Source of the DNA: an uncultured virus (IMG/VR IMGVR_UViG_2030936005_000022)
Taxonomy: Duplodnaviria; Heunggongvirae; Uroviricota; Caudoviricetes
DNA length: 20,000 nucleotides
Virus record (IMG/VR): IMGVR_UViG_2030936005_000022
Location: 116,838 to 136,837 of that record
Direction: 5' to 3' (one strand)
Of the stretch, positions 331 through 20,000 are shown in pieces (the first letter of the stretch is position 1; each line of letters starts with the position of its first letter). A model generated the notes under the pieces. That model saw nothing but the letters and a program-made list of their open reading frames with translations. It was not told where the DNA came from and ran no database searches. The position numbers and the translations under genes were made by a program.

Positions 331-850
331 TTTTCATTACCAAACCTAAAGTTTTTAAGTACTGAACCTTTGCATCTGTTAAATTCCTATCAAGTACAAT
401 AATACAACTAGGGAAAGGTGCAGGGTTCTCCTTTTTAGTTACATCTCTATCAGGGTCAAAGAACTTCAATCTTCCCTTAATAAAGCATATACAAGAACAT
501 TCTTTGGCTGCATAAAGTTGGAATGCTTTAGTATCAGTTCTAGAAGGAACTAGTATAACAACTGTGGCTCCCCTTTGATATGCATCAACTGCTTTGGTAA
601 GCCATGTCTTAAGATCATCGTAAGGTGGGTTAAGCCAAACGATTTCAGTACCCCAATCCTGTATTAGACTATTGTCTCCAGGAGTGTAGTACTTTTTACA
701 TAATGCACTATTGGGTAAACACGCTGCATCTAGTGTAAACTTCCAATGTGCATCTATGTCGCGAAATAACTCTCTTGGAGTATTCCATGTTTGAGATTCA
801 GAAGAGTAATGTATACTCATATCTCTCTTTGCATTTCCTTTGCTACTCAT
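323..850 (-). CDS. Phage DNA N6-adenine methyltransferase (phage Dam family)
   Basis: W-x-TP, FTLDAA, VWLNPPY catalytic motif, LVPSRTDT, FIKGRLKF and APFPS motifs of the phage Dam/MTase family; 175 aa. Confidence 0.92.
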   Translation of the reverse strand: MSSKGNAKRDMSIHYSSESQTWNTPRELFRDIDAHWKFTLDAACLPNSALCKKYYTPGDNSLIQDWGTEIVWLNPPYDDLKTWLTKAVDAYQRGATVVILVPSRTDTKAFQLYAAKECSCICFIKGRLKFFDPDRDVTKKENPAPFPSCIIVLDRNLTDAKVQYLKTLGLVMKNV

Positions 851-857
851 AAAAATC

Positions 858-1391
858 CTATTTTAGACAGAACCTCATAATGTCATCAAATTCGGCACTA
901 TTGATTCTGTATTCGTCGTGAAGTTTAAAGTGGCTTCCATACAACATAAAGATGTTAAAAACTTCATCTTCAGCAAACTTGTATGTGTTAAATGATTCGT
1001 TATCTCCTTTAAATCCAATGAAGGACTTAATATCTTCAGTTACATCAGTACTGTTACTGTAGTATAAAACCGTTTTTAACTCACCACTTATTGTATATTT
1101 CCTGTACTCACCTTGAACTCTGTTGTTATGGTCAGTATAATATACAGTATTGATATTCCCATTGTTATAGCGTTCCTCGCTATAACCACCATATTTCACA
1201 GAAAAAATGACAGGTTGTTGTGTAGGTCTAAAACTAATCTTTCCTACTTGCTTTCCTTCGTTGAACTCAATAATATTACTGAGTTTATTGAAGTCCTTTG
1301 TAATTTTATATCCAGTAAAGTAATTCGGTACTTCGTTGTCATTGGGCTTGATAACTGTACCATCTTTCTGTTTATATGTTACTTCATTCAT
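858..1391 (-). CDS. Hypothetical protein with MORN-variant-like repeats
   Basis: Likely ATG at 1391 (MNEVTYKQ). Segments GGYSEERYNNGNI and GEYRKYTISGELK resemble MORN-variant/YwqK repeats. C-terminal EDEVFNIFMLY weakly resembles the array motif. Confidence 0.7.
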   Translation of the reverse strand: MNEVTYKQKDGTVIKPNDNEVPNYFTGYKITKDFNKLSNIIEFNEGKQVGKISFRPTQQPVIFSVKYGGYSEERYNNGNINTVYYTDHNNRVQGEYRKYTISGELKTVLYYSNSTDVTEDIKSFIGFKGDNESFNTYKFAEDEVFNIFMLYGSHFKLHDEYRINSAEFDDIMRFCLK

Positions 1392-1426
1392 TGTCTGTGC
1401 TTCTCTTTTTGTTATGTACAATCAAC

Positions 1427-2062
1427 GAATCATTTCACTTCGTTCTATGATTCAGAGAAAGAATAATTCAAATACTCACTAGCGTTCGTATTTTAATATT
1501 CTTTTCATTGGATTGTACTTTAATTATTGACGAGGTTTGTTGATTCAATTTCATCCCCCCACAGGGAGGGAAGAAAAATATATTTGACGCTGGTGGTGTC
1601 ATCATTTCATGTCACGAATTTCATATAAGAACGGAAGCGGGTTGCCCGGTTTCTTCCTATCGCGGTTCTATGCAACGGTCGTAGTCTTACTACACTAATA
1701 CAATAACAACATGAACTGTTATTGTACTTATCACTCAAATTCTGGACGGAATAAGGGCTAGCCCTAAATTACGTCGCACTTGAATAAGGTGAATCCCTTA
1801 TACATTATGGTAGGTGCGAATCCTATATGTCTATCGTGCCGTGAACACGCCAAGTCCTCTTGTATTAATCGACTTGGTTTTAATAGCCGCATTGCCGTGG
1901 GTGGTACTAACTATGCCATCTCCTAACGGGTCTCATCTGCTATCGTACTGAATGAACTACTCAACTGTCCTCTACATTTTCGAGTGAATCAGGTTATTTA
2001 AATTCCCCAGAACGGGGCCATTCAGAATTGAAAAGGGGTAAAGGACACACGCCTTTACCCCT
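1427..2062. ncRNA. Candidate large structured non-coding RNA or structured cis-element
   Basis: Only long ORF-free gap in the window, somewhat GC-richer than its flanks, with at least 10 stems (e.g. 1699-1708/1717-1726, 1850-1856/1871-1877, 1948-1954/2019-2025, nested 1628-1669). Minus-strand promoter directly upstream at 2065-2093. Strand not resolved. Confidence 0.5.
2031..2062 (-). terminator. Intrinsic terminator-like hairpin after ORF 2082..2939 (or 5' hairpin of the putative ncRNA)
   Basis: 11-bp perfect stem AGGGGTAAAGG/CCTTTACCCCT (2034-2044/2052-2062) with a 7-nt loop, ending in a short T run on the minus strand. Confidence 0.65.
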
Positions 2063-2064
2063 AT

Positions 2065-2093
2065 ATTATATCACATTTTTGTCACTTTGTCTC
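2065..2093 (-). promoter_or_regulatory. Sigma70-type promoter with extended -10
   Basis: Minus strand GAGACA-N17-TATAAT with AATGTGA directly before the -10 (TGn extension); same architecture as 4751-4779. Confidence 0.7.
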
Positions 2094-2939: not shown

Positions 2940-2940
2940 A

Positions 2941-3162
2941 TTAATCGAAGTTCCAAGATTCTTCTTCGAAGTCACTTAGCATTTGTGCTAGTTCAGCCGC
3001 TTCACCAATACTAGCATCAAGCACTTCAAAGTCAATATTACAACCGTAATAACACTCTGATGCTTGCATTAGTTCATCATGAATCTCTTGTACAGATTTG
3101 TCTTTGTATAGGTTTAGATAGTGATCACCACTTTCAGATGTAATGTGTAATGCTACAATCAT
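2941..3162 (-). CDS. Hypothetical protein (73 aa)
   Basis: AGGAGA RBS upstream of ATG 3162 (MIVALHITSESGDHY). The longer ORF-track start overlaps the upstream gene. Confidence 0.75.
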   Translation of the reverse strand: MIVALHITSESGDHYLNLYKDKSVQEIHDELMQASECYYGCNIDFEVLDASIGEAAELAQMLSDFEEESWNFD

Positions 3163-3172
3163 AGTATATCTC

Positions 3173-3937: not shown

Positions 3938-3957
3938 AAGTTCTCCAAAATTAAATT

Positions 3958-3985
3958 AAAAAAAGAGCAGGAGTTTCCCCCTGCT
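3958..3985 (-). terminator. Intrinsic terminator
   Basis: Minus strand AGCAGGGG-GAAA-CTCCTGCT (one G.U pair, GNRA loop) followed by C and T7, just after the stop at 3993. Confidence 0.85.
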
Positions 3986-6631: not shown

Positions 6632-7117
6632 TCATTTAGCTTCTAGCTTATACGCCTCAACCGCTTCAGATACATTCTCGATAGCTTGATCGATAAATTC
6701 TTTACTAACTAAACGCGGGGAGGTCTTCATTTCTTTTAGAAGCTCTAGGTATTTAGTCATTAATTCTGGGATGATTCCAAAGTCGAAATCATGCACAGTG
6801 CTGTACTGAAATAGTTCACCACCATCGACATACAAGCGATTGTACGAGGTTTTAAACCCACTTTCGAGTACTGTTAGGGTCAAATCCAAACCACGCTCAT
6901 ACGAGCCTACAGACACGATAGCAGGGTTGATAGCAATACTAGCATTCTTTGCATTATCACTATAAACTAAACGTAAAGTTCCAGCACCAATAATAACAGT
7001 TAGGTCATCTGTATTAAGGGTAGTAATATCCCCAGAAACAGAAACTTTATTATTTAGACGGTCTTTAGTACTGAAAGATTTAGATAGCCGTGCAAATGCA
7101 TCTTCAAGTTTATTCAT
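6632..7117 (-). CDS. Array paralog (FQxS family)
   Basis: Motif GGELFQYSTVHD; start overlaps the upstream stop by 1 nt. Confidence 0.8.
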   Translation of the reverse strand: MNKLEDAFARLSKSFSTKDRLNNKVSVSGDITTLNTDDLTVIIGAGTLRLVYSDNAKNASIAINPAIVSVGSYERGLDLTLTVLESGFKTSYNRLYVDGGELFQYSTVHDFDFGIIPELMTKYLELLKEMKTSPRLVSKEFIDQAIENVSEAVEAYKLEAK

Positions 7118-7557
7118 TATTCGTAATCCTTTAGTAGTTCTACTAGTTTAACAATACTATCATCACTGCAAGTGTACGATAGGTTTAGAAGGGTGTACTG
7201 GAAGAAATCAATTTCATTAATTCCACCATACGGTACTGGTTGGGCTTTACCTTGTTTGTCTGCCATGTAAACATCTTCTGCATCAAAACGCATAGAAAAT
7301 GTATCACGTTCTTCTGGGTTCAAATACACAATAAAACGACCCAAGGATTTAGCAAGTTTTTCAATCCTGATGCTATTAGAACCATAACTGAACTCAGCAT
7401 CACCGCGATCATTCTGGAAATGATAGAAGTTGATACCACCAATATTAGTATAGCCCTCTGTGTATAGAAGGTCTTTGTGGTGATACATAACTTGAATCAG
7501 TTCATCAAGCGTAGTCGTCCGAGTCTTATTTTTGGTTAGCGAAAATAAATGAATCAT
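7117..7557 (-). CDS. Array paralog (FQxS family)
   Basis: Motif EIDFFQYTLLN. Confidence 0.75.
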   Translation of the reverse strand: MIHLFSLTKNKTRTTTLDELIQVMYHHKDLLYTEGYTNIGGINFYHFQNDRGDAEFSYGSNSIRIEKLAKSLGRFIVYLNPEERDTFSMRFDAEDVYMADKQGKAQPVPYGGINEIDFFQYTLLNLSYTCSDDSIVKLVELLKDYE

Positions 7558-7987
7558 AAATTCCTCTGCACATGGATAACGTTTTAATCATTGTATCATA
7601 GTCGAACTTGACTTGCAACCCCCAACCACCCACACAATTTTGAGTGAAGAAAACACCCTCCATCTCGTCAAGTGTGAACGCTTCATCAAACAAATTAGTC
7701 TGATATAATTCGGTCTTTGGATTGTATACCATCAAGAATTCAGTACTGTAACGTATTACTAATTTCTTTGGACTAATCATAATCCTGCATAAATCTTGCA
7801 AGTACTCAGTGCGAATATGTAAGTTAATGTGATTCTTATGACCAGCACAACGAACATCCATCGCGTATCCATCACCGATAACAAAACCATTTCTGGGGGT
7901 AAATTCTTTACCCGCACTCATTGACAGGCAATCCTGTACAATATAATTGATTGTATCCAAGTTGTCAAGTATATCTACTTTACGCAT
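7526..7987 (-). CDS. Array paralog, divergent motif
   Basis: AAGGAG RBS before ATG 7987 (MRKVDIL); motif-like EMEGVFFTQNCV. Confidence 0.7.
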   Translation of the reverse strand: MRKVDILDNLDTINYIVQDCLSMSAGKEFTPRNGFVIGDGYAMDVRCAGHKNHINLHIRTEYLQDLCRIMISPKKLVIRYSTEFLMVYNPKTELYQTNLFDEAFTLDEMEGVFFTQNCVGGWGLQVKFDYDTMIKTLSMCRGIYDSFIFANQK

Positions 7988-7997
7988 ATCTTCTCCT

Positions 7998-8567
7998 TTA
8001 AATCCCAACCTTATGTATCAATGTACGACGAATTTTACGAACATACTGAGTCTTAAATGAAAACGGGATATAAAGATGATAACCCTCTAATTCCGGGCAA
8101 GGTGCTGTAAGAATCTCTTCATAGGCTCTTTTAATTATATTGTACTCTGGTAGTTCTGGGTGGATCAACGATAACTGAAAATGCTCATCTTCAGTACATA
8201 ACCCTTCCTTAAAGAATGTGTCAACATAATCATCAGTATCCAATAAATCTGAATTTTCAGAATTAACAAAAGAATAACCAAAAAATTCATCATCTTTGTT
8301 GTAGGCAACACTGCAACCTGTATTACAAAATAATGAAATGCCAGTATCTTTGGATAAATGGAATACATGTTCGGAACCGTAACCATCAATGTATGTTCTT
8401 ATATATATTTTATCTTTATCAGTCCATACAAATTCTAGTTCATTACCATCGTCCATGCGAGTGTTTTGTTGATAACTATAAGCTACTTTTTGTTTCCTGA
8501 AATTCAAACAACGAATAGCTAGATCTCTACATAACTCGAAATGCTCTTTAAGTTCTTCATAGTTCAT
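7998..8567 (-). CDS. Array paralog (FQxS family)
   Basis: Motif TEDEHFQLSLIHP. Confidence 0.8.
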   Translation of the reverse strand: MNYEELKEHFELCRDLAIRCLNFRKQKVAYSYQQNTRMDDGNELEFVWTDKDKIYIRTYIDGYGSEHVFHLSKDTGISLFCNTGCSVAYNKDDEFFGYSFVNSENSDLLDTDDYVDTFFKEGLCTEDEHFQLSLIHPELPEYNIIKRAYEEILTAPCPELEGYHLYIPFSFKTQYVRKIRRTLIHKVGI

Positions 8568-8570
8568 TGG

Positions 8571-9179
8571 TTAAAATTCCTCAAAGTACAAACAAATGTC
8601 ATCATAGATAGTGTTAAGAAGTTCAGTACTAACTTCTGGACAAAGATCCATATAGAAACACATACCTTTCATTTCAGTACAATCCATAGTTAGTGCTTCC
8701 ATATAACGTGGAAGGTCTTCGTACTTCAATACCATATCATCACGAATAAGTGATTGTTGAAAGTACTCTTCCTCGCTGATATTAATTACACCACCATCTA
8801 GCTTAGAATCCAAGTACTCATCTTCGTGATCATTCCCACTATCAAAGAATGTATACTCTTCATTACGTTCATCACCTTCCATGAAGTTACGGCCCCATCC
8901 ACGATGTGTACGGAGATTGATAATATACAAGTGCTCATGATTTCCAATTTCGCAAATCTCGTAACGTTCTTCGTGATCATCCATATCAAATGATACACGA
9001 ACTAATGCATGTTCGTCTGCGTACTTAAACCCATACACCCTGCATAAGTATTGTGGCATGTACTTTTCATAAGAGAATACTTTTGGTTTATTCTTATTAA
9101 GCAAAGCACCCAATTCTAGCATAAGTTTGTAACGATAGATATCTTCATCTACTTTGTCTTTAAAGGTTGAACGCATCAT
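8571..9179 (-). CDS. Array paralog (FQxS family)
   Basis: Motif SEEEYFQQSLIRD; start probably ATG 9179 or 9176. Confidence 0.8.
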   Translation of the reverse strand: MMRSTFKDKVDEDIYRYKLMLELGALLNKNKPKVFSYEKYMPQYLCRVYGFKYADEHALVRVSFDMDDHEERYEICEIGNHEHLYIINLRTHRGWGRNFMEGDERNEEYTFFDSGNDHEDEYLDSKLDGGVINISEEEYFQQSLIRDDMVLKYEDLPRYMEALTMDCTEMKGMCFYMDLCPEVSTELLNTIYDDICLYFEEF

Positions 9180-9567
9180 AAAAGTCATTGACAATATCCT
9201 CTGCCTCATCTTGGTTCATTGGTTCTACTGAAAGTATTTCGATACGTTCAGGTTCCCAGATCATATAAGAATTACATGTATCTGGTTCGAAAAGATTTTT
9301 GTACTCAACTGAATTATATCCGTCACGAGTACAGGAATTGATTGTATCACGCCATGCTTGACAGTCACCCATGTCATCCATAGCCACTACACGACCTAGA
9401 TCTACTTCTAAGCGGTGCACATAGATCTCTAGCTCACCACTACCACAGTAGTTGCGAACCTTGCGTAAGGCCGCCTCAAGAGCACTGTGAATACCTCCCA
9501 TATGAATCCCACCATATGGAACGTAAAAATCTTTAATTTTAACTGTACTTGCGTGATACAAAATCAT
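9160..9567 (-). CDS. Putative ADP-ribosyltransferase-fold protein (ART-PolyVal-like), not a member of the array family
   Basis: N-terminal LYHAS, then GIHMG...A, and C-terminal GYNSVEYKNxxE...SYMIWEPERI resemble the LYHG...GYDG...Y[IV]VFxPxQI pattern of phage ART-like domains. Assignment by motif recall only. Confidence 0.55.
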   Translation of the reverse strand: MILYHASTVKIKDFYVPYGGIHMGGIHSALEAALRKVRNYCGSGELEIYVHRLEVDLGRVVAMDDMGDCQAWRDTINSCTRDGYNSVEYKNLFEPDTCNSYMIWEPERIEILSVEPMNQDEAEDIVNDFYDAFNL

Positions 9568-9568
9568 T

Positions 9569-10153
9569 TTAATATCCCCATAGTAATTCGTCTAAGCATT
9601 TATATGACGGATAGTAACACATCTGGGGTTCGATTGTCAAGCTATCATTATCATAAAGAGGAAGATTTCTCATACGATTCATGATCTCATTTAATTCTTC
9701 AGCAGTGTAAGTGTCCATGATAGTACTGTGCATGAATAACTCACTCTCTGCTTCAGCATCCAATTGGCTGTCACGACAGTACCAACCAATCTCGTATTCT
9801 TTCTCTTCTAGACCATATACCCGTACTGGACATGTATCACAACAAGTAGCATTAGAATAAATCTCTATCATGTTCACGGATAATCTGTTAGTTGGGTGTC
9901 TGGTAAAACATTGTCCTAGAGAAAGAATACCATTACGGTAGGAGTACTTATTTTCTTGATAAGAAATACTCATATAGTCAGGCCAGAAGTCTGCTGTTAC
10001 TGGACCTTTTTGCTGTGCATGAATATTGAGATTAATACCATCACACGTCTTCTGAAAGTTATGGTAACGCTGAATTAAAGCAAATAAAGAGAAGTACACT
10101 TTATCATTTAACATCATATCCATAACGGTTTTTAATTTTTGATCTCCAATCAT
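9569..10153 (-). CDS. Array paralog (FQxS family)
   Basis: Motif AESELFMHSTIMD; ATG 10153. Confidence 0.8.
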   Translation of the reverse strand: MIGDQKLKTVMDMMLNDKVYFSLFALIQRYHNFQKTCDGINLNIHAQQKGPVTADFWPDYMSISYQENKYSYRNGILSLGQCFTRHPTNRLSVNMIEIYSNATCCDTCPVRVYGLEEKEYEIGWYCRDSQLDAEAESELFMHSTIMDTYTAEELNEIMNRMRNLPLYDNDSLTIEPQMCYYPSYKCLDELLWGY

Positions 10154-10772
10154 TACCACACCTTTCTGCCATTAATTCAATAAGTGCTTTACGTGCTGGA
10201 ACAAAACGCAACACGTCTGTTGTACCTAATGCAAGAATTGATTCAGTACTGATATCATCCTTGAACATTTTTAAATGATCATGTACGAAGTGTACTAGAT
10301 ATGCACCATCAATTCTTTTTTGATCCCCTACCAGTAAAGCCTGAAACTCTGCTTCACGCATCGAATCATTGTCTATCCCCTCAAGAATCATATTATACAC
10401 TATCGCAAAATCATTGTCAAAGTTGCGATATAAATTATCAATACAATCCATATGGGATAGTACAAATCTGTACTTTGAATTGTTAGGGGAAGTGAAGTTC
10501 TTAATATGATTCTTACTACTTGTAATAGTAATTAATCTATCATAACCTTCATCGTATGTAATAGCATTGTGTAAATTTACTTCAGGCCATCCAAAGCTAA
10601 AACGGTATGACCGAATCTTTTCACCTTTCTCGTGAGGGATATAATGCTGACCACCAATACCACTTCTGTACTTTGCTAAATCTGGGTAATTATCATTGTA
10701 GAGTTTAAACATGTACATAATATCTAAAATGTACCCAGATAGCTTTTTCATCTTTTCGTATGAAGTCTTCAT
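10104..10772 (-). CDS. Array paralog, divergent motif
   Basis: ATGA overlap start at 10772 (MKTSYEK); motif REAEFQALLVGD. Confidence 0.75.
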   Translation of the reverse strand: MKTSYEKMKKLSGYILDIMYMFKLYNDNYPDLAKYRSGIGGQHYIPHEKGEKIRSYRFSFGWPEVNLHNAITYDEGYDRLITITSSKNHIKNFTSPNNSKYRFVLSHMDCIDNLYRNFDNDFAIVYNMILEGIDNDSMREAEFQALLVGDQKRIDGAYLVHFVHDHLKMFKDDISTESILALGTTDVLRFVPARKALIELMAERCGNDWRSKIKNRYGYDVK

Positions 10773-11347
10773 GCTAAATTTAATAACCCCCATACCTTTT
10801 GAGTACAATAATCTTTGAGTTTAATGTCGTTAAGTTCCTCTTTATTCTCGGCAATTGAAATGGCATAATCAGGTGGACAGAACTCACTAAAGTGATGATA
10901 ATGTTCCCTCATCATTACATAATCCGAATAATCAGGAACCGAAGCCAAAGTACTCAACTGAAATATTTCCTCTTCAGTAATATCAATTGGTACTTGAGAT
11001 AGTTCTACTGTACTATTTCCAATCACAATATCAGTACTGGAAGAATTCATATACATATTCATACGTTTTGAAATCGTATCACCAAAACCACTAAACATCA
11101 ACCTAGATTCTTTTGGCATAAGCATATTTGGTGAAGGAGAGACATTGAATATTTTAATTCTAAAGATTGATATATTATCACGGTGTTTAACATCAAATGT
11201 AGTTTCATACTCATCTTTGTATAAACACATCTTCAACAATCCCATACAACCATCATAGCTCATCATTAAGTCTACATAGAAAGAAGGTACATTATTATTG
11301 AAATGTATTACTGCTTTTAATAAGTTTGTGTAATCTTTGAAATCCAT
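10769..11347 (-). CDS. Array paralog (FQxS family)
   Basis: Motif TEEEIFQLSTLAS. Confidence 0.8.
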   Translation of the reverse strand: MDFKDYTNLLKAVIHFNNNVPSFYVDLMMSYDGCMGLLKMCLYKDEYETTFDVKHRDNISIFRIKIFNVSPSPNMLMPKESRLMFSGFGDTISKRMNMYMNSSSTDIVIGNSTVELSQVPIDITEEEIFQLSTLASVPDYSDYVMMREHYHHFSEFCPPDYAISIAENKEELNDIKLKDYCTQKVWGLLNLA

Positions 11348-11829
11348 GCCATGCCCTCATCTAGAATTGAATCAATAATCTCAAAGTTTTCATCACTCAT
11401 GCGGTTGACCATAATAGTATTAATATCTGGGTTTAAATTCTTTAGTACTGCTAGAATAGTTAACGCACGTGCATCCGGTACAATCAAATCCGATAGGAAG
11501 AAAAGTTCTTCCTCGTTATTACCATCCCATTCTGGAACTAATACTGTCTTATTATCAACTAGCAATTCATTACCTTGACACCTACGCCAGAACATAAGAA
11601 TACCATTTACAGTCGTATCCATTCTATTTTCTAGTACTGGATTCGGATGATTGAAAGTTCCAATTCCAAATACTGGAAGATTGTAATCATTATTCAGGAT
11701 TTGAAATCCAGAACCAGCAGTACTATAATTCGTATTGAACTCGAATTTACCTTTAGTAATACGGTTACCAATACAAGAGTAAGGTTGTAATGCGTCAACT
11801 TTTTTACAGAAGTTTAAAATATCAGTCAT
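11317..11829 (-). CDS. Array paralog (FQxS family)
   Basis: Motif NEEELFFLSDLIV. Confidence 0.78.
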   Translation of the reverse strand: MTDILNFCKKVDALQPYSCIGNRITKGKFEFNTNYSTAGSGFQILNNDYNLPVFGIGTFNHPNPVLENRMDTTVNGILMFWRRCQGNELLVDNKTVLVPEWDGNNEEELFFLSDLIVPDARALTILAVLKNLNPDINTIMVNRMSDENFEIIDSILDEGMAWISKITQTY

Positions 11830-12340
11830 GGAATGTATCTCTCAATTTAGTAAGTTCTTCAATAATAGTATCAACACAGAATGTATGATTAGAGTACGAA
11901 AGAACACTAATTCCATTCGGGTTGTTGTACTTATAATGAGACATAATCGCAATCTCATCAATTGCGGTGTTATCATAAATTGTACTCAACTGGAAGATCT
12001 CACCTTCACCCTCACCAGTTTCAATGTTAACCGGGAATAAATTGATAGAAACACTATCCTTACCACCAATATAATCCATGTGTTTACATTCACTAAGACG
12101 AATAGAACTCGCTTGGTGTTCAGAACCATAACATATAGGAGCCACTTTAGACTCCCTTGTTGAAATGTGATAAAGAGTTGTAATGTTCAAAACAGTATAA
12201 AGACTAATACCCATATCATCATTGTGGAAAGTAATACCAACATTATCATACAGTGTTTTACAGAAGTTCTTCCCCTCAAATGCATAAAGAGGTAATAGTT
12301 CTTCCAAGAGTTTTAGTACTTTATAATGTTTCTGATACAT
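11822..12340 (-). CDS. Array paralog (FQxS family)
   Basis: Motif GEGEIFQLSTIYD. Confidence 0.8.
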   Translation of the reverse strand: MYQKHYKVLKLLEELLPLYAFEGKNFCKTLYDNVGITFHNDDMGISLYTVLNITTLYHISTRESKVAPICYGSEHQASSIRLSECKHMDYIGGKDSVSINLFPVNIETGEGEGEIFQLSTIYDNTAIDEIAIMSHYKYNNPNGISVLSYSNHTFCVDTIIEELTKLRDTFHD

Positions 12341-12984
12341 TAGATATCCTCTTTTAAATTCTGTACAAAAGTAACAATCTTACTTTCTACTTCATCAATG
12401 ATTGAATCATCAACAACAGTAGGAAGGTTTATGTACTGATCATATTTCTTTTCATTCTTCGCTACGTAACCGTCAAACATGTTATCAACGATATTAAGTA
12501 AACTGAAGATACAGTACAACCCAAATGAATGACCATCAAAGGCAGTAACAGTACTGTGTTGGAATTCCAACTCTTCCATCTCATCACGTACAATCAAAGA
12601 ACCACCAGCTTCTACTGGAAGCGACTCAAGCTCAATAGCTTCGTGTGCATTCTTTTCAGTGAAACGTAATGTAGTCTTTTTACCTGATAGTACTAAAGAT
12701 TTACCAGTTAAGTAATTTTCAGGACTGTAGTAACCGTTATTTTCAGCTAGATGCGTTTTGAGAATAGTATTACCATTATGTGTCTCATTGTTCATAATCA
12801 TAACAATGAACTCATTACTCCCACGTGTATAGAATAAACGCAAGGAATGTGTATCATTAACATCACCCAAATCCCACATCATTCTGTGCTTGATTTCAGT
12901 ACTGTCAGATTGATCTAAAAGTACAGTCGCTTGTTGAATGTACTTAATCATACGGTAGTGCTTTAACATGCTATTGTGATTCAT
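12340..12984 (-). CDS. Array paralog (FQxS family)
   Basis: Motif MEELEFQHSTVTA. Confidence 0.8.
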   Translation of the reverse strand: MNHNSMLKHYRMIKYIQQATVLLDQSDSTEIKHRMMWDLGDVNDTHSLRLFYTRGSNEFIVMIMNNETHNGNTILKTHLAENNGYYSPENYLTGKSLVLSGKKTTLRFTEKNAHEAIELESLPVEAGGSLIVRDEMEELEFQHSTVTAFDGHSFGLYCIFSLLNIVDNMFDGYVAKNEKKYDQYINLPTVVDDSIIDEVESKIVTFVQNLKEDI

Positions 12985-13577
12985 TATAGTATCCTGTATC
13001 TTCTGAATAATGGCCTACTTGTAAAATAATTATACAGATAATCATTCTCCAAGTCAACCCCTCTGTGGAAATTATATACCACAAAATCGATGTTCTTCAG
13101 CCGCAATGCTTGAAAGTCAATGACGTTGTACATCATATCACGCATAAATTTGTTGTCCACTGTGAAGTCCACTGCTACTTTGCGTTCAGCCGCATCACAC
13201 GTTTGATCATACGGAATATATTCTTCTAGTACATCTCCACTATCTAAGTAACCACTACGCATAGTCAAGCACTGATCACTGAGTGAAGTTAATATAACAC
13301 TATCAGTGTACATATAATAGTTCACGTGAGTATGGCTTGTTATTAACCCTTCGGATGCATAGAATGTTATCACGTCATTGTTTAGTGAAGCTACATTCTT
13401 CTTCTCAAGTACAAGTTTCTTTACTGACTTATTATTACCTAAATCTTCAGTATCAACCCTTAAAGCAAACTCACCCAAGTCAATAAGATCTTTGCGATGG
13501 ATTAGTCTTTCCCATTCTATGTCAAGCATTGAACTGAACTTAATAAGCTCTCTATATATCGTGTCAAGTGTGTTCAT
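12984..13577 (-). CDS. Hypothetical protein within the array; family motif not clearly present
   Basis: ATG 13577 (MNTLDTIY) after a GGGGG RBS-like element; same size class as the paralogs. Confidence 0.72.
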   Translation of the reverse strand: MNTLDTIYRELIKFSSMLDIEWERLIHRKDLIDLGEFALRVDTEDLGNNKSVKKLVLEKKNVASLNNDVITFYASEGLITSHTHVNYYMYTDSVILTSLSDQCLTMRSGYLDSGDVLEEYIPYDQTCDAAERKVAVDFTVDNKFMRDMMYNVIDFQALRLKNIDFVVYNFHRGVDLENDYLYNYFTSRPLFRRYRIL

Positions 13578-13588
13578 AAGACCCCCAT

Positions 13589-13622
13589 AAAAGAAAAGGC
13601 AGTGTATCACGATACACCGCCT
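13589..13622 (-). terminator. Intrinsic terminator inside the array
   Basis: Minus strand AGGCGGTGTATC-GT-GATACACTGCCT (one G.U pair) followed by TTTCTTTT. Confidence 0.8.
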
Positions 13623-13631
13623 GTGTCAACA

Positions 13632-14186
13632 TCAACATGCCGCTTCTGCTTCAAAAATATCAATCATAGCTTGAACCGCTTCAGTACTGAAGGATAACAA
13701 GCGAGTCGCATTTAGTGCAAAATAATAATCGTTATTCATTGTGTTATGATAACAGTACTCAATGTATGAAGCAAATAGTTCTATTTCATTATCTACAACC
13801 ATACGCTGGAATAGTTCATCATCAGTACCATTGACAATTATTTCAATTTCAGCACACTCTGGATTGTTATCAAAATTGATAATCTTACGCTCTAAGCAAG
13901 TCTCTAAACTATGCATAGTTAGAAGTATATCACCTAGATTGGTTTTTTGTATATGCATAGTACCTTCAGAACTTCTGTCCAAATAAGTATGACACGCAAC
14001 TAAGAACCAATCATCTATTGTACTTTTAAGTACTGAACTATGATGTTCGCGATTAATAACATCAGTCCCAACAAAAACAGTCATCTTTGCTAAATCAGTA
14101 ATATTTCTGCACATGTGCCGTTTATTGTCATGTATATCCATGATGCAATCAATAAGTTTCTTTATTAGATCGAATTTGGCAAACAT
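13632..14186 (-). CDS. Array paralog (FQxS family)
   Basis: Motif TDDELFQRMVVDN; AGGAGA RBS. Confidence 0.8.
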   Translation of the reverse strand: MFAKFDLIKKLIDCIMDIHDNKRHMCRNITDLAKMTVFVGTDVINREHHSSVLKSTIDDWFLVACHTYLDRSSEGTMHIQKTNLGDILLTMHSLETCLERKIINFDNNPECAEIEIIVNGTDDELFQRMVVDNEIELFASYIEYCYHNTMNNDYYFALNATRLLSFSTEAVQAMIDIFEAEAAC

Positions 14187-14779
14187 TTCTTTTTCATCTC
14201 CTGAAGTTCAGAATGAGCATCATAGATTTTCTGTACTGAATTAGCAAAACAAATATAAACCTTAGTGTGGTTTTCTTCACAGAGAGTATCTTTCAACATG
14301 AAGTTCAATACCATAGCATTGATTTCATCAGTACTATATACTAGACCCTTCTGGAATAATTCACCCCGTAACTCTTCTTCATTATTAACATGTATTAGAG
14401 TAGGAAGATATACCTCATCACCTTGTATATCCCGCCAGAACCAATTACGATCATTCACTACTAAGATTTCACCACTACCTTCTCGAATGCACATACGCTT
14501 CTTGTCTGACTGATAGCGAGTACTGTATGGTCTGTTGTCATCCATAGGATCAGTATTAGCTGCTACAATAAATGAATTATAATAGTTCACATCTTCAGAA
14601 TTCAACTGCAATGCAATACTATTTTGTATCTTCAGGATTTTGTACTTTGAACTCTCATATAGTACTGCATCCATCTGGGTTACATCATCTAATACCATGT
14701 AATCAGCTATGTCACGAATCAATAAACAAACTTCTTGTACTGCTAACCACTCCAAATAACTACAATCTGCTAAATTCAT
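14165..14779 (-). CDS. Array paralog (FQxS family)
   Basis: GGAG RBS before ATG 14779 (MNLADCSY); motif LRGELFQKGLVYS. Confidence 0.8.
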   Translation of the reverse strand: MNLADCSYLEWLAVQEVCLLIRDIADYMVLDDVTQMDAVLYESSKYKILKIQNSIALQLNSEDVNYYNSFIVAANTDPMDDNRPYSTRYQSDKKRMCIREGSGEILVVNDRNWFWRDIQGDEVYLPTLIHVNNEEELRGELFQKGLVYSTDEINAMVLNFMLKDTLCEENHTKVYICFANSVQKIYDAHSELQEMKKKCLPNSI

Positions 14780-14810
14780 CTTAATCTCCAACTTAAACGC
14801 AATCTCATAG

Positions 14811-14905
14811 CACCGTCGCCCGGTCGCCCCCCGATTACACTTTATTTGCACTTTGTGAAGCGAAAATTTTTTTACGCCCCGGCACGCATATCCTCCGGGG
14901 GGTAA
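14811..14905. other. GC-rich intergenic island with inverted and direct repeats (candidate terminus, packaging or origin element)
   Basis: GTCGCCC x2 (14815-14821, 14823-14829), CACTTT x2, an A4T7 tract, and the stem TTACgCCCCGG/CCGGGGgGTAA (14872-14882/14895-14905) in otherwise AT-rich DNA. Confidence 0.6.
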
Positions 14906-14908
14906 CAT

Positions 14909-15544
14909 TTATTTATGCTTTGTAATTTCCATCATTTCGGCTAATTTCTTGTTCACATTCATAATAGCTGTATCTAAACGTTTAATCTGTAACAAACTCT
15001 GTCCGTAATAAATCATTTCACCTAACTTGTACTCCGCATCACGTAAACCCATCCACGTAGCAGCACCATCCGTCAAACGACTATCAATACACATCTGTGT
15101 CTGGAATAATGTCTCATCTGGTAGCTCCATAATATCTAAACCATCAGGCAATTGTACTGCACTGTTCTCGTACTTAACTTGTGCAAACAAAGGGGTATTA
15201 CGCATTACGTACTGAATGTAATTACTATCTTCTGTACTTTTAATAACTGAATGTGTTGGAATTGGCTTCAATGGGATAATGGGCATGTTACGATTTAAAC
15301 TAACGTACATTGAATTACCTTTACCAACAGATAAATCTATTTCGTCTGATTTTCCCGTTCCTGCACTAAAAAAATACTTCTCTTCTTCAAACAATGCCTG
15401 TACTTCATTGTAGGTCACTCCACGTGCTCTGTGCTCACGAATCAACCACAACCCAGCAGCAATGTGCGGTAAATATTCATTACCGATTATGTACTGATCA
15501 CGGAACTTCTTACCCTCTTTACTCACTTTTAATTTTAATGACAT
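14909..15544 (-). CDS. Array paralog (FQxS family)
   Basis: Motif PDETLFQTQMCID. Confidence 0.78.
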   Translation of the reverse strand: MSLKLKVSKEGKKFRDQYIIGNEYLPHIAAGLWLIREHRARGVTYNEVQALFEEEKYFFSAGTGKSDEIDLSVGKGNSMYVSLNRNMPIIPLKPIPTHSVIKSTEDSNYIQYVMRNTPLFAQVKYENSAVQLPDGLDIMELPDETLFQTQMCIDSRLTDGAATWMGLRDAEYKLGEMIYYGQSLLQIKRLDTAIMNVNKKLAEMMEITKHK

Positions 15545-16211
15545 ATTCTTCTAATGCCTCAATAATTTCATCGTAAGGAATCACTATAACATTATCCACC
15601 GCGATTGTCAATACTCCCGTAAGGATATCACACGTATTAACTAAATCATCGCCCTTCTCAAAGGTACGCTTGATTTGATCAATACCCATCGAAAAATCAC
15701 TCAACACCTTATCAGCATCTAATGCCATATCAGGCTCGCAACTCACATTGTGCTGGAATAACTCGCATTCTAACGCATCGTAACCATCCTCAAAGGGATT
15801 CTCTAAACTGAATACCCTTGGCCTACCCTTCTGTACTACGGCCCCTGCTGACACCATAGCGATATCCTGAAGCGATTTATAGGAACTCTGCCACGATAAC
15901 CAATGACCATCTGTACTGATAATCGGTACTGCATTCTCGAATTTACTATAATGACACGCTCTGAACTCAGCAATGGGTACAAATAACATACCACTCATTG
16001 TCGGTACTTCAATCTGTAATGAAGCAACCCATACATCATTTGTGTGATCAGGGTGGTAATACTTCTTCGGTACTCGTATACGAAAACCTTGCGGTACTGA
16101 ACCTACTACTTTACGATCAATACAACGTGGCATTGCCTCCATTATCTGTACTAACCTTTGTAATTTAATACTGTTCAAAGCCTGTGTATCCATTGTATCC
16201 ATTGAATCCAT
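15519..16211 (-). CDS. Array paralog (FQxS family)
   Basis: Motif LECELFQHNVSCE; N-terminal MDS-MDT-MDT repeat leaves the start ambiguous. Confidence 0.78.
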   Translation of the reverse strand: MDSMDTMDTQALNSIKLQRLVQIMEAMPRCIDRKVVGSVPQGFRIRVPKKYYHPDHTNDVWVASLQIEVPTMSGMLFVPIAEFRACHYSKFENAVPIISTDGHWLSWQSSYKSLQDIAMVSAGAVVQKGRPRVFSLENPFEDGYDALECELFQHNVSCEPDMALDADKVLSDFSMGIDQIKRTFEKGDDLVNTCDILTGVLTIAVDNVIVIPYDEIIEALEEYVIKIKSE

Positions 16212-16809
16212 ACTGTTCTCTCATCAATTTGATAATGTTCAATACGCCCTCACAATGGTTCAACGGATCTGCACCTAACCACATTTGAATGTTAGGTAAC
16301 TTCCGTCTACGCCACTCGAACGCAAACATCAAAGCATTAATAACTTCAACCTTCTGTACTAAACTCTCTTGGAACAAAAACATCTCCGTATCTGGATCTG
16401 TCATGTCCATCATTTCGTACTCAAAATATATATCACTAATGATACTTTTACGGAATATAATTCTATCACTATCTTTGTTTAATGATATATGACTCGTTAC
16501 TGTATCATTTAATAATACTACGTTTAACTCTATGTTTGTGGTATAATCCCAATTGTACTTTAAAACCGTTTTATTAACACACGCTATATGAAAAAACTGC
16601 TTTTTATCTTTATAATTATAATTGAAAAAACCACCATCCCTTTCAAAACCTACAACAACATCATTCTCAAAATTCCATGACTGTACATTGAATACTTTTT
16701 GTTGTATGTCTTTATTCTTCAGGTACTCATTCGTGATACCAATTAATGCCATCGCTTCCTCTAGGTAATCAATGCATTGACGCACCTCTTGTACTGTTAA
16801 TATGTTCAT
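16165..16809 (-). CDS. Array paralog (FQxS family)
   Basis: Motif TEMFLFQESLVQK. Confidence 0.8.
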   Translation of the reverse strand: MNILTVQEVRQCIDYLEEAMALIGITNEYLKNKDIQQKVFNVQSWNFENDVVVGFERDGGFFNYNYKDKKQFFHIACVNKTVLKYNWDYTTNIELNVVLLNDTVTSHISLNKDSDRIIFRKSIISDIYFEYEMMDMTDPDTEMFLFQESLVQKVEVINALMFAFEWRRRKLPNIQMWLGADPLNHCEGVLNIIKLMREQYGFNGYNGYTGFEQY

Positions 16810-17372
16810 AACTTTGGCTCCCCAAGCTGTACGTATAATTCATTGAAGCGTTTATTCTGGTAATATTCTATGGTACTCTCCATGCTCTCTATTACACGAT
16901 CTAATACATTTAAGGACCACACGTGTACAAAAGCAAACCTAGGCATCTTTAATTCATGTAATGCGTACATAATACAAAACTCATCGTACAACTTATCATG
17001 TATTAAACTCTGCTGAAATAAAAATGATTCCTTATCGTTGAAATCTAATTCATATTTCGTACCATCTTCATCATCGATATCCCGCACGAATGCTGTACTA
17101 TTTGGATTGTAAATTATTACATTGTGCTGATTACCCTTGATAATTTTCTTATCCGAAATGTAATTGTAATCCCACATATCCCCCCAAGCGATCTTGTGAT
17201 CGATAACAGGGTCACTACCCTGATACCACACGCAATCACCCCTATCATGAAAAGCTGATACCATCAAAGGACTTCTGCATATTGGTGTATCACATGTGTA
17301 TGTGTACAACTGCTCCAATAAGGAATCAATCTTGCATATTTTCTGTGCGTACTCTATGTGCCAATCTTGCAT
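16806..17372 (-). CDS. Array paralog (FQxS family)
   Basis: Motif KESFLFQQSLIHD; ATG 17372. Confidence 0.8.
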   Translation of the reverse strand: MQDWHIEYAQKICKIDSLLEQLYTYTCDTPICRSPLMVSAFHDRGDCVWYQGSDPVIDHKIAWGDMWDYNYISDKKIIKGNQHNVIIYNPNSTAFVRDIDDEDGTKYELDFNDKESFLFQQSLIHDKLYDEFCIMYALHELKMPRFAFVHVWSLNVLDRVIESMESTIEYYQNKRFNELYVQLGEPKL

Positions 17373-17898
17373 CAACTTCCCCTATGAATTCTGCTGTACT
17401 GTTCTGTACATATTCTAAAATCTCTAATAAACCCTGTAATGAATATGCATTAAAACGTAATGTGAAATTGTGCTTGAACTCATTCTCTTTAAGATACAAC
17501 CAAAATCCTACATCAATTTCTTGTTCTGTGCTTTGTACTAAACTCTGCTGGAATAGCCATTCCTCGGTCAAATTCTTACGCTCATGGAATGCATGATGTA
17601 TACGTATTGTATCACCTGTATCAAACGAAAAACGTAAAGCTACTCCTTTCGCCCTGTGAGGTTCTCCCATAATGAATGAAACACTATTACACAAGGACTT
17701 TGCAAGGACTCTACTCTCTTCATCGGTGGGATGATTGAAATATTCTAATGCACCTCTGCTTATTGTAAAACATTTTGGTACTTGCATCTTAATATCATTA
17801 CGCATAGCTTCGCAATTCTTAATTACAAATAATGTGTACGTATCATATAATGTCTTTAAGGCTTCCATCGCCTGTCCGTACTCGTGTCTCTCGATCAT
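17326..17898 (-). CDS. Array paralog (FQxS family)
   Basis: Motif TEEWLFQQSLVQS; GGAG RBS before ATG 17898. Confidence 0.8.
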   Translation of the reverse strand: MIERHEYGQAMEALKTLYDTYTLFVIKNCEAMRNDIKMQVPKCFTISRGALEYFNHPTDEESRVLAKSLCNSVSFIMGEPHRAKGVALRFSFDTGDTIRIHHAFHERKNLTEEWLFQQSLVQSTEQEIDVGFWLYLKENEFKHNFTLRFNAYSLQGLLEILEYVQNSTAEFIGEVDARLAHRVRTENMQD

Positions 17899-18430
17899 AA
17901 ATCTTCTCCAAATCAGCAAGAAATACATCTACATCAAACCATAAATTCTGATGGAAGGTTCCCAATATCCCAGCATTATGCATAGCGGATACAACGTACT
18001 GACAATGTACAACCTCTGGTTTCGCTACGAATTGCAACTGCTCATACATAGCCTCATCCATCTCTTCTGTACTAAGGATATCATGAACTGAAAAGGTATT
18101 GCAAGAACTTTCGTACAAAAAATCCATCGTGTTTTCAATGTTTACACTACAATACGTACAATTCTGTACATCTCTGTAATTAGCAAAATTCGTATCGTCT
18201 GTTGTACTAATCAATGTGTATGTATTCAAAAGATTCTTTTTGTTATAATACAACATGTGCTCAAGGTCACCATCTAAATGTAAACTCATCTCGATTTTTA
18301 TTGTACCACATGAACTAAAATATGTACCCTTACCATCGTAATTTACAATAAATGCTTTGTACTTCTCTAACCATTCAAAGCACTTTAGGATTTTATTTGT
18401 GTAATTTGTTGTGTACTCAAATGTGTACAT
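17843..18430 (-). CDS. Array paralog, YxQL subfamily
   Basis: Motif DEAMYEQLQFVAK; AGGAGG RBS. Confidence 0.8.
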   Translation of the reverse strand: MYTFEYTTNYTNKILKCFEWLEKYKAFIVNYDGKGTYFSSCGTIKIEMSLHLDGDLEHMLYYNKKNLLNTYTLISTTDDTNFANYRDVQNCTYCSVNIENTMDFLYESSCNTFSVHDILSTEEMDEAMYEQLQFVAKPEVVHCQYVVSAMHNAGILGTFHQNLWFDVDVFLADLEKIYDRETRVRTGDGSLKDII

Positions 18431-18963
18431 AGCACCTCCTGGAACAACGTAATTAACTCTCTTGGACTGTGTACTAAATTCTCATAATACACCAACTGCC
18501 TCTCTTGACTATCCAAAATACTCATGAGAATAATACAATTCACTACATCTTTAGTGTGTACAAATTCTAATTGATCATACATCTCTTGGGTTATCTCTGT
18601 ACTTTTAAGATACTGATAACATGATAACTCTCTGTGCATTATACCTATGTCAAATGTTGTATTGCACTTCTGATGGAAATTGTAAAAACGATATCCACCT
18701 TCTCCATTGTCAACCCAACTGCCATCAGTAGGATCTAAATTGTAAAAACCAATAGTACAAATTTCGTACTGGTCTTTACTTAAACGCCATGCATTACCCT
18801 CAACGCCATGTACTAAATTCCGTAACTCAAAACCATTTGTTAAACCAATAGGCTTACCCCAGCACGAATATGTTCTAGTACTGTAAACTAAATCCATCAA
18901 TTCAATTATATCTTGTGCATATTGCTTTACTTCTTCAAATGTCTCTAACTCAATTAGTTTCAT
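18385..18963 (-). CDS. Array paralog, YxQL subfamily
   Basis: Motif TQEMYDQLEFVHT. Confidence 0.8.
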   Translation of the reverse strand: MKLIELETFEEVKQYAQDIIELMDLVYSTRTYSCWGKPIGLTNGFELRNLVHGVEGNAWRLSKDQYEICTIGFYNLDPTDGSWVDNGEGGYRFYNFHQKCNTTFDIGIMHRELSCYQYLKSTEITQEMYDQLEFVHTKDVVNCIILMSILDSQERQLVYYENLVHSPRELITLFQEVLCTHLSTQQITQIKS

Positions 18964-19477
18964 ATAAAGCTAATCCTTCATCAATATTAATATATTCTAA
19001 ATTGACTTTAAATGGCGTAGTACATACCTTCATCAACTCCAAATATAATTCTAATGTATCATATGCATGATTTGGTAGTACTAAACTCTGCTGGAATAAT
19101 ACGTCCTCAGTATAAATGCTAGGATCTTTAATTGTAAATTTCGTTTCATCTGTAAAACCTGATATACTTGTAATGTACTCATCTTTTCCACCAGTAGGAG
19201 AGAAACAAATAATATCTGTCTTTTCAGTCATCCATCTCTCTTGTGAACAAGTATTCCAATAATCACCTGCACAAATAACAAATGCATGATCTTGCATATG
19301 ACATGATACATTAAGACCATCAGGTGTATCGTACTCATCATGTGCATCATCAAACAATTCTGAACTATGTCTGTATCCATAATGATCCATGTAAGTACTA
19401 GGATCAGCTAGAAAGTACTTCACTAATTTTGCTAACTTCCTAGCTAAGATGGTAGTTTCTGATTCCGTATTTTTCAT
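18950..19477 (-). CDS. Array paralog (FQxS family)
   Basis: Motif TEDVLFQQSLVLP. Confidence 0.8.
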   Translation of the reverse strand: MKNTESETTILARKLAKLVKYFLADPSTYMDHYGYRHSSELFDDAHDEYDTPDGLNVSCHMQDHAFVICAGDYWNTCSQERWMTEKTDIICFSPTGGKDEYITSISGFTDETKFTIKDPSIYTEDVLFQQSLVLPNHAYDTLELYLELMKVCTTPFKVNLEYINIDEGLALYETN

Positions 19478-20000
19478 CTAATACCTCATATAATTCTTCT
19501 ATCTTAGGACTGAACCACACCCTAAAAGATGTATCGTATTCTTTAAAGTACTGTACAAATTGTACTACATTTAAAATAGTATCGCTATACACAGTACTGA
19601 ATTGGAATTCTTCATCTTCATTGAGTAGGTTGTGTTGTAATGTACTAACTGTCTGACCTTCACCATCAACCTCAATATCTACTTCATCTGCCCTCTTATG
19701 ATTGATGTAGATAAAATCAGTATAGTAATCATCATTGTAAAAAGTTGGTGGTGCACTAACTCTTTCATGTGTATTCTCTAGACAGAACATGTATTGATCT
19801 TTCTGTATCTCAAGTTCATTAGTACTAACAAGATACATCTCTTGATTGTTCTCATGAACATGCATAGAAAAGTCTTTGTTAATGTAATAAATTTCATAAT
19901 GCTGATAGATAGATATGCATTTCATCTTGTGCTTATCTTGCATAAAACTCTTCATGAAAGCAATTACATTTTCTACCTTAAGACATAACTCTTTGTTAGT
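19440..20000 (-). CDS. Array paralog (FQxS family), 5'-partial
   Basis: Motif NEDEEFQFSTVYS. The frame stays open to the window edge (TNKELCLKVENVIAF precedes MKSFM), so the start probably lies beyond 20000. Confidence 0.8.
   Translation of the reverse strand, partial: TNKELCLKVENVIAFMKSFMQDKHKMKCISIYQHYEIYYINKDFSMHVHENNQEMYLVSTNELEIQKDQYMFCLENTHERVSAPPTFYNDDYYTDFIYINHKRADEVDIEVDGEGQTVSTLQHNLLNEDEEFQFSTVYSDTILNVVQFVQYFKEYDTSFRVWFSPKIEELYEVLDEKYGIRNYHLS

Follow-up and report, generated by a model that had tools for sequence, protein, structure and literature searches.

Why should a short palindrome that is densely repeated along a phage genome be missing from some four kilobases of coding sequence, and what could enforce such a rule? 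The question is raised by a 20,000-nucleotide stretch (hereafter the window) that forms the final 20 kb of a 136,837-bp contig from an uncultured virus of the Caudoviricetes (IMG/VR IMGVR_UViG_2030936005_000022, positions 116,838 to 136,837). The palindrome, AGTACT, is over-represented throughout this genome and its clade, and within the window it disappears where a second pattern is found: a zone at 14662..18552 in which the trinucleotide ACT is wholly absent from the sense strand.

The first part of the window (1-6845) matches Salmonella phage Munch and its group at ~81% identity. An IMG/VR contig of 359,777 bp (G001; CheckV 99%) represents the same phage and was used as the full genome. Of three sequencing runs, each represented by contigs, two contain the stretch and the third has almost none of it. 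The whole 137-kb contig aligns to G001 175199-312032 with 99.988% identity, and a G001 position equals the window position plus 292,032. Genes were called as longest open reading frames rather than by a trained gene finder, giving 207 genes that cover 94% of the contig; all real genes in the window lie on the minus strand, which is referred to as the sense strand. The full analysis used one genome per lineage, the five Munch-group records being nearly identical at the zone locus.

A sense-strand zone free of ACT

The ACT-free zone (14662..18552, minus strand as sense) consists of 3,891 bases without a single plus-strand AGT and thus without sense ACT, against ~80 sense ACT expected from neighbouring same-strand sequence, from which the expectations for the zones of all genomes were drawn. 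No other trinucleotide gap is as extreme as the corresponding AGT gap (14661..18553, 3,892 bp), either in the contig (gap multiplied by rate, 79.7) or in the full genome (82.5), with 17.6 and 23.6 for those ranking next outside the zone. The zone sits within a tandem array of ~23 paralogous genes (6632..19955, minus strand, from open reading frame calls), which encode proteins of 135-250 amino acids with an E-x-LFQxS motif, in fuller form E-x-LFQ-x-S-(T/L)-(V/I), and it takes in six of these genes together with an intergenic element and ~40 codons at the start of the gene that follows. Munch genes 054-080 are colinear with the array, and the protein identities of 27-69% in the orthology table indicate fast evolution. 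Searches of Pfam and PHROG with seven zone proteins returned no family. The paralogue motif has some likeness, judged from its residues, to a protease cleavage site.

The preliminary description held that AGTAC is permitted in only one orientation near an island at this locus. The exclusion instead concerns plus-strand AGT in any context and any frame, with AGA and GAG mostly excluded too, and AGTACT and plus-strand AGTAC are missing from the zone because AGT is excluded there. On the plus strand of 14662-18876, AGT numbers 3 against 88 from the rest of the contig, AGA 7 against 56, GAG 2 against 25 and the dinucleotide AG 71 against 213. Sense TCT and CTC are nearly absent as well from a core of the zone (14598..17491, minus strand, delimited by AGA and GAG positions): between 14662 and 17491 the sense strand carries 0 ACT (59.3 expected), 0 CTC (17.0 expected) and 1 TCT (37.7 expected), and GCT or CCT followed by A, G or T (SCT[AGT]) is at its normal level. 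The downstream border is sharp; at the upstream border one or two isolated ACT precede the return to normal density, and TCT exclusion is weaker upstream.

These exclusions are visible in codon choice, where the threonine codon ACT is used for 0/66 residues in the zone against 77/139 in the flanking paralogues, the serine codon TCT for 2/69 against 30/144 and the leucine codons CTN for 16/106 against 97/210. They also extend across codon boundaries. Shuffles that keep the zone proteins and their codon usage predict 21 out-of-frame ACT, whereas the zone has none, a value reached in 0/500 shuffles, and an NAC codon is followed by a T-starting codon in 0/49 cases in the zone against 44/121 in the flanks. 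The loss of out-of-frame ACT shows that the zone is not an effect of codon usage.

The tetramer GTAC remains enriched in the zone (52 copies against 35 after shuffling), where it is present as sense-strand AGTACV (33 against 14 after shuffling) and reaches the contig maximum in density, 41 per 3 kb. This agrees with the earlier impression of dense GTAC, put at ~50 copies and here counted as 58 in 14662-18876, of which 37 are GTACT. The accompanying statement that AGTAC never occurs there on the plus strand was correct for 14662-18753 and fails at 18754, where one copy lies. Along the plus strand, 54 successive GTAC sites lack a 5' A, the next longest such run in the 137-kb contig being 8, and a 5' A is found at 585/1126 GTAC sites outside the zone against 1/57 inside.

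Conservation and anchoring of the zone

A syntenic sense-strand zone is the top trinucleotide gap in three relatives, namely Munch, EJP2 and fEgEco12. In Munch it occupies 25612-27567 (2.0 kb), with 0 ACT against 36.8 expected; in EJP2 there is 1 ACT against 53.6 expected in 14818-17008, within an ACT-poor stretch that starts at ~13.5 kb and totals ~3.5 kb; and in fEgEco12 it extends over 29019-37312 (8,293 bp, ~22 annotated genes), with 0 ACT against 179.9 expected. The zone is thus present in the Munch group and in Asteriusvirus. Pooling this phage, Munch and EJP2 (8,034 nt) gives 1 ACT against 171.9 expected, with observed-to-expected ratios of 0.17 for CTC, 0.20 for TCT, 0.25 for CTG, 0.26 for CTA, 0.40 for AAC and 2.07 for GAG, and sense AGT, the reverse complement of ACT, is 1.4-fold enriched in the pooled zones. 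The trinucleotide-gap scan gave no ACT-free zone in T4, RaK2 or fHe-Yen9-04. A GTACT-poor stretch upstream of the primase gene in Munch (216-219 kb) was rejected as a second zone, since it is not ACT-free. An 'AAG-free' stretch of fHe-Yen9-04 was likewise set aside as a compositionally odd tandem gene block: at 349.8-352.3 kb, tandem genes of ~385 amino acids show plus-strand CCC raised 6-fold and CCT 5-fold, with AAG at 0.05, giving AAG- and AGA-free runs unrelated to the ACT zone.

The exclusion follows position rather than gene. Gene 17928..17326 has no ACT in this phage and 8 in its Munch orthologue, and gene 17375..16806 has none here and 3 in Munch; genes that are ACT-free here thus have ACT-bearing orthologues, which ties the property to location.

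Sequence comparison identified a conserved single-copy intergenic element (14780..14908, minus strand) at the downstream end of the zone, which is probably the 'island' of the preliminary description. The element comprises, in order, a GC hairpin or G-run, the sequence A6-7T4-C(C)GCT (here A7T4-CGCT) and -35/-10-like hexamers, and its 3' part has a G-rich stretch ahead of the next start codon in three of the four phages. In all four, the zone ends 105-270 nt past the element. The contig, Munch, EJP2 and the first 60 kb of fEgEco12 each have a single sense-strand copy of the 10-mer AAAAATTTTC, always at the zone end, and Munch has one further, unrelated copy on the other strand. A motif scan of IMG/VR for the element returned 11 loci, one from the same phage and 10 unrelated and without a zone, and blastn matched it in the five Munch-group phages only.

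Phages of this clade have long terminal repeats, of 21,296 bp in Munch (PMC8273493), 19,736 bp in fENko-Kae01 (PMC11218385), 22,456 bp in CBB (PMC5259590) and 20,993 bp in fEgEco12, where the repeat was confirmed by digests (PMC13070987) and where the first and last 20,993 bases of the record are identical. Directly past the repeat boundary lies a block poor in GTAC and in sense AGT. Its AGT content is 0.15 of expectation in this phage (window-equivalent 21.0-22.0 kb, G001 313.0-314.0 kb, past the contig end), 0.36 in Munch (21.3-23.5 kb) and 0.30 in EJP2 (10.0-11.5 kb). Block and zone are partial mirror images around a centre of 1.5-2.5 kb.

AGTACT as a genome-wide and clade-wide word

An exact recount of the window returned 50 AGTACT palindromes between 358 and 19826, with 43 up to 14661, none until 18877 and 7 thereafter, precisely as first counted by hand. 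Base composition predicts 6.6 (the earlier estimate was 7-8), an excess of ~8-fold; GTAC totals 207 against 63.9 expected on the same basis, GTACT 131 and AGTAC 80. A gap of 4216 bp between AGTACT sites was reached in 0.15% of 2000 random placements.

Under a maximal-order Markov model of the contig, GTAC is the top tetramer (1185 against 871, z 14.5) and GTACT and AGTAC are the two top pentamers, and the 368 copies of the hexamer AGTACT are near the 334 predicted by the pentamers, indicating a signal that is hierarchical around GTAC. The 207 genes hold 354 copies. Synonymous codons shuffled within each gene would give 96 (z 30), permuted codons 60 (z 35) and a dinucleotide-preserving synonymous shuffle 221 (z 14), each control being run with 200 shuffles. 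AGTACT is the top hexamer overall under the synonymous null, the runners-up being overlapping words, and it occurs in all three reading frames (151/79/124). These controls rule out a codon or dipeptide artefact as the source of the excess. The proposal of (A)GTAC(T) as a DNA-level signal that spans the genome therefore stands, as the excess is strand-symmetric, survives correction for codons, dipeptides and dinucleotides, and is present in the whole genome rather than in the window alone.

Reverse-complement pairs are about equally enriched (AGTACA 2.09, TGTACT 1.79), which indicates double-strand reading, and AGTAC and GTACT are balanced on the plus strand of the contig (588 and 674). Among the one-mismatch neighbours of AGTACT the lowest are AGGACT (0.61) and AATACT (0.81), none being markedly depleted, and biased repair of the very-short-patch type is thus an unlikely origin of the word.

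The full 359,777-bp genome contains 1014 AGTACT against 143 copies of the reversed word. The corresponding counts are 850 and 149 in Munch, 1312 and 159 in EJP2, 1313 and 200 in Hallingskeid, 1008 and 137 in fHe-Yen9-04, 1356 and 130 in XaC1, 937 and 142 in RaK2, 1011 and 169 in GAP32 and 1115 and 151 in fEgEco12, as against 29 and 51 in T4, 15 and 40 in PA5oct and 0 and 127 in XacN1. AGTACT is thus enriched 5.6- to 10-fold over the reversed word in 9/9 Rak2-like jumbo phages and in 0/3 outgroups, saturating an entire clade of candidate phages for therapy. Of the 242 sites of this phage that can be aligned to Munch, at a mean identity of 77%, 124 are conserved; this 51% compares with 29% over all hexamers and places AGTACT at rank 16 of 625 frequent hexamers. 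Among the matches listed in a search of the literature on the clade, no mention of the excess was found. In fEgEco12, 28 tightly packed genes encoding ~70-85 amino acids extend from the terminal-repeat boundary (21,091-27,280), and ~21.0-26.5 kb of this genome is the sole large coding block seen without AGTACT.

AGTACT density in the ~20-kb direct terminal repeat is ~3 times that of the rest of the genome, with 6.1/kb in the Munch repeat (1-21,296) against 2.2/kb elsewhere, 6.6/kb in the fEgEco12 repeat against 2.6/kb elsewhere and 5-7.4/kb at G001 315-335 kb in this phage. The difference arises partly because predicted early promoters carry AGTACT, on the edge of the -35 and immediately before the -10. 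One repeated promoter form, AGTACTTTATAATA, has 10 copies in the Munch repeat, and another, AAAGTACTTGCATT, has 7 copies in this phage. Promoter-like contexts account for a small share of all sites, the -35 form for 50/850 in Munch (sense strand). A generic promoter scan was uninformative, with 83 matches against 91 expected. Pairs of AGTACT exactly 11 bp apart number 26 in EJP2 (first ~10 kb), 2 in Munch and 2 in this phage.

The Escherichia coli Chi octamer GCTGGTGG is also frequent in these genomes, ranking first of 168 permutations of the same composition in the five genomes tested (count and permutation median: G001 57/3, Munch 28/3, EJP2 37/2, RaK2 18/2, fHe-Yen9-04 18/2). It is clustered on the sense strand of the terminal repeat, which holds 11/20 plus-strand Chi in Munch and 15/36 in this phage (G001 314-335 kb), a distribution that suggests phage ends built to engage host RecBCD.

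Two superimposed layers

These patterns can be read as two superimposed layers, a double-strand AGTACT word and a separate zone with a strand-specific ban on ACT, a reading to which we give slightly less than an even chance. In the first layer, AGTACT, with its GTAC core and flanking A and T, is a selected, double-strand, highly iterated palindrome of the whole clade. It would be the docking word of a sequence-specific factor, most simply a dimeric DNA-binding protein, and the fixed promoter positions and the EJP2 pairs one helical turn apart favour such a protein over a primase site for AGTACT.

The second layer is a position-bound and nearly absolute ban on sense-strand ACT over 2-8 kb, accompanied by weaker bans on TCT and CTC. 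As a bare trinucleotide is banned in all frames, something able to read three bases on one strand would be needed, and as block and zone are related by reverse complementation while transcribed in the same direction, a two-fold-symmetric DNA process fits better than a rule acting on RNA. That the zone reflects a strand-specific DNA process of some kind is somewhat more probable than the contrary. Replication or recombination close to an origin or a site of breakage would qualify, with forks or resection moving away from or towards the centre between block and zone. The zone strand would be exposed as single-stranded DNA on which recognition by a trinucleotide-reading enzyme must be avoided, and the zone may thus represent avoidance of priming or of single-strand cleavage.

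The leading candidate for the reader of the zone, proposed by analogy and at clearly less than even odds, is a primase of the phage T4 type. Priming by T4 gp61 is reported to begin at 5'-GTT-3' or 5'-GCT-3', followed by a cryptic T on the 3' side, and to yield 5-nt primers (PMC4488733). Homologues of gp61 and gp41 have been reported in CBB, and recombination genes of the UvsX, UvsW and gp46/47 types in the clade (PMC5259590). In Munch, Munch_316 ('DNA primase') adjoins Munch_317 ('DNA helicase') and has a weak Toprim_2 match (19.7 bits, against a cut-off of 22.1); the primase gene lies outside the 137-kb contig. The strand opposite the zone sense is depleted in the T4 site GTT (0.41). Because ACT shares the CT of GCT, because the clade has a T4-like primase and because GTT is depleted, an unprimed or uncut single strand is ranked first among the explanations of the zone, the ranking being weak.

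Several observations weigh against this interpretation. No factor reading AGTACT or ACT was found in the analysis, and origin-like repeats or iterons between block and zone were sought and not found, the sole repeats there being those that encode the FQQSLV motif of the paralogues. T4 itself has no GTT-free zone, its largest GTT gap being 466 bp and its top trinucleotide gap multiplied by rate 17.6. GCT, the alternative T4 site, is not excluded from the zones (0.76 pooled), and the exclusion of CTC does not suit a primase site with a cryptic T. Measured inwards from the terminal-repeat boundary, the zones start at 4-8 kb and end at 6-16 kb, and a physical genome end at the zone was rejected as too far from that boundary, given repeats of 21,296, 19,736 and 20,993 bp. 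The mirror block is weak, and its AGT depletion is not prominent in fEgEco12, in which the 5.5-kb coding block at ~21.0-26.5 kb lacks AGTACT and has GTAC at or below chance. AGTACT spacing, mildly more even than random in the contig (coefficient of variation 0.80, zone excluded), is not regular in complete genomes (0.98-1.01), and a regular, Okazaki-like spacing was rejected as weak in the former and absent from the latter. Finally, the word that is read may be ACT on one strand or equally its complement AGT on the other.

A bolder form of the proposal, which we regard as doubtful, is that these phages write instructions for replication and recombination in trinucleotides. A kilobase-scale stretch of one strand beside the unique cis element, from which ACT is barred as a word for primase or nuclease and which has a weaker mirror opposite, would stay unprimed, uncut and single-stranded over a long distance. 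It might initiate recombination-dependent replication or serve to rebuild the terminal repeat, and AGTACT would act as a two-strand 'start here' word elsewhere.

Whatever its reader, the total lack of a three-letter word on one strand for 2-8 kb makes a sequence signature of great strength, held while the encoded proteins diverge to ~30-40% identity, and it provides a precise and cheap experimental handle. It raises the questions of where jumbo phages start replication, how they handle 20-kb terminal repeats and what reads AGTACT. Scans for runs free of a short word can also reveal cis-acting domains that are invisible to gene-based annotation.

Alternative explanations

The best surviving alternative places the rule on RNA, with mRNAs from the zone lacking ACU, and mostly UCU and CUC, and thereby resisting a sequence-specific endoribonuclease, which might be an abortive-infection toxin of the host or a shut-off RNase of the phage. 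An absolute, frame-independent exclusion on the sense strand is what would be expected if one cut kills the message, the zone genes are fast-evolving early genes without an assigned function, and ribosome-independent toxins with 3-nt cores exist, among them MazF (ACA), ChpB (UAC) and MqsR (GCU) (PMC8546651). However, among the cores named there for E. coli toxins, nine of which were profiled, none is ACU, RelE cutting before G (PMC8546651), and a literature search for an ACU-specific toxin found none. The two borders of the zone fall within different genes, and a hairpin and a promoter-like element lie between them, with 105-270 nt of the next gene also included, so that the zone does not appear to follow one transcript. 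AGU is depleted in the adjacent block, which has the same direction of transcription; such two-fold symmetry is expected of DNA and would be a coincidence for RNA. All remaining genes of the phage are full of ACU. We consider protection of the message, modelled on the resistance of ACA-less mRNAs to MazF, unlikely on this evidence.

Both layers could also be merged in a single enzyme, in that 5'-AGTACT-3' would be the optimal start of the clade's T4-type primase, supplying on both strands the cryptic 3' T and the template for pppGUACU, with ACT as the minimal site and the zone as a strand left unprimed, for instance beside an R-loop origin or a break-induced one at the element. Besides the 5-nt primers of T4 gp61 and the CT shared by ACT and GCT (PMC4488733), this would account for the hierarchy of enrichment from TACT to GTACT to AGTACT, for its restriction to a clade in which primase and helicase genes are present, and for the strand opposite the zone sense, on which GTACT is denser than anywhere else in the genome (26 per 3 kb against ~15) and which is depleted in GTT (0.41; pooled AAC 0.40). 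It sits badly with AGTACT at fixed promoter positions and in 11-bp pairs, with the AGTACT-free 5.5-kb coding block of fEgEco12, with the irregular spacing of AGTACT genome-wide and with the lack of an analogous zone in T4. Since ACT already occurs ~1 per 45 nt, priming sites should moreover not be limiting, and a common enzyme for both layers appears quite unlikely.

A third possibility is that AGTACT or GTAC is the target of a phage methyltransferase and forms a dense self-mark or shield, the zone being modifiable on one strand only. The window encodes a Dam-family N6-adenine DNA methyltransferase (323..850, minus strand; Pfam PF05869, E 2.1e-30; phrog_111), which is a candidate modifier, although nothing ties the gene to AGTACT. 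We take PF05869 enzymes to be mostly specific for GATC, a word under-represented here (0.74). Adenine and cytosine methyltransferases have been described in members of the clade (PMC5259590), and as many other restriction palindromes are avoided (GCGC 0, CCWGG 4, CAGCTG 0, CTGCAG 0, AAGCTT 2), a palindrome that is tolerated and enriched may be the protected one. Methylation nevertheless gives no reason for selecting more sites and leaves the exclusion of a bare trinucleotide, together with TCT and CTC, unexplained, which makes it very unlikely as an account of both layers.

A mutational footprint, in which a local context-specific process such as damage or deamination of the non-template strand of a heavily transcribed region erased WCT, is highly improbable: ACT in all frames can be removed synonymously (ACT to ACA, NAC to NAT, CTN to TTR) and ATT, TTT and TTA are somewhat enriched (1.2-1.6), but the zone sense strand is lower in T (0.301, against 0.324 in the comparison sequence) and higher in G (0.229 against 0.196) where C to T changes would raise T, threonine codons have shifted to ACA, ACG and ACC and not to isoleucine, 1 ACT against 172 expected among proteins 27-43% identical would need a long-held bias of >100-fold, and the sharp downstream border is tied to a conserved element. 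Single-strand DNA ADP-ribosylation of the DarT type was also rejected as a reader of the zone, as neither the DarT2 motif TNTC nor DarT1, for which no consensus is reported, fits ACT, TCT and CTC (PMC11543638).

Comparison with known systems

The closest parallel to the first layer is HIP1 (GCGATCGC), the highly iterated palindrome of cyanobacteria, which is maintained by selection and of which we know no reader. Both are short palindromes many-fold over-represented genome-wide, in genic and intergenic sequence alike, and kept by selection, and AGTACT shares with HIP1 the genome-wide excess, the conservation of sites and the distribution across a clade with negative outgroups. It differs in being a 6-mer of an AT-rich virus clade that is ~3 times denser in a terminal repeat, partly fused to promoters and subject to a local strand exclusion zone.

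Chi (GCTGGTGG) and KOPS are likewise short words in excess, and their strand polarity is linked to replication or to processes at DNA ends. AGTACT, by contrast, is palindromic and has no polarity of its own; orientation bias is seen in the zone only, where it reflects the exclusion of ACT in any context, and the zone rule is the exclusion of a 3-mer and not the orientation of a 5- to 8-mer. We know of no translocase that reads three bases.

The zone resembles T4 gp61 priming in having a strand-specific trinucleotide code ending in T on what would be a single-stranded template, and departs from it in that GCT is not excluded from the zones and T4 has no site-free zone, the tie between ACT and a primase being analogical. 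No priming-free zone is known to us in any replicon, without a dedicated literature search. In phage T7, the EcoP15I sites are all reported to be in one orientation, and ACA-less mRNAs resist MazF; in these cases, as in the zone, a short word is wholly absent or in a single orientation, and one hit is harmful. They are, however, genome- or gene-wide, concern words of 3-6 nt and have a known enzyme, whereas the zone is of kilobase scale, ignores gene borders, is anchored to a cis element and mirrored by a partner block, and is not associated with any known enzyme. Ordinary restriction avoidance is not the pattern seen either, the exclusion being on one strand only and confined to 2-8 kb. To our knowledge the ACT-free zone has no described counterpart, a statement backed by AGTACT motif searches, zones free of a trinucleotide or of priming not having been searched for as such.

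Other features of the window and contig

Searches for RNA families and tRNAs in the window returned none. The contig avoids words of the restriction type, with GCGC at 0 (88 expected), CCAGG at 1, CCTGG at 3 and CCCGGG at 0, and further words including CAGCTG (0), CTGCAG (0), AAGCTT (2), GACATC (0) and GATC (0.74). Within genes, TAAATA (22 against 81) and TATTTA (8 against 69) are avoided, which fits the T4-like late promoter word. A perfect hairpin with an 11-bp stem at 2034-2062, which scores as a terminator on both strands, is placed in a 600-bp gap between genes at 1421 and 2082, part of which matches other jumbo phages at 82-88%.

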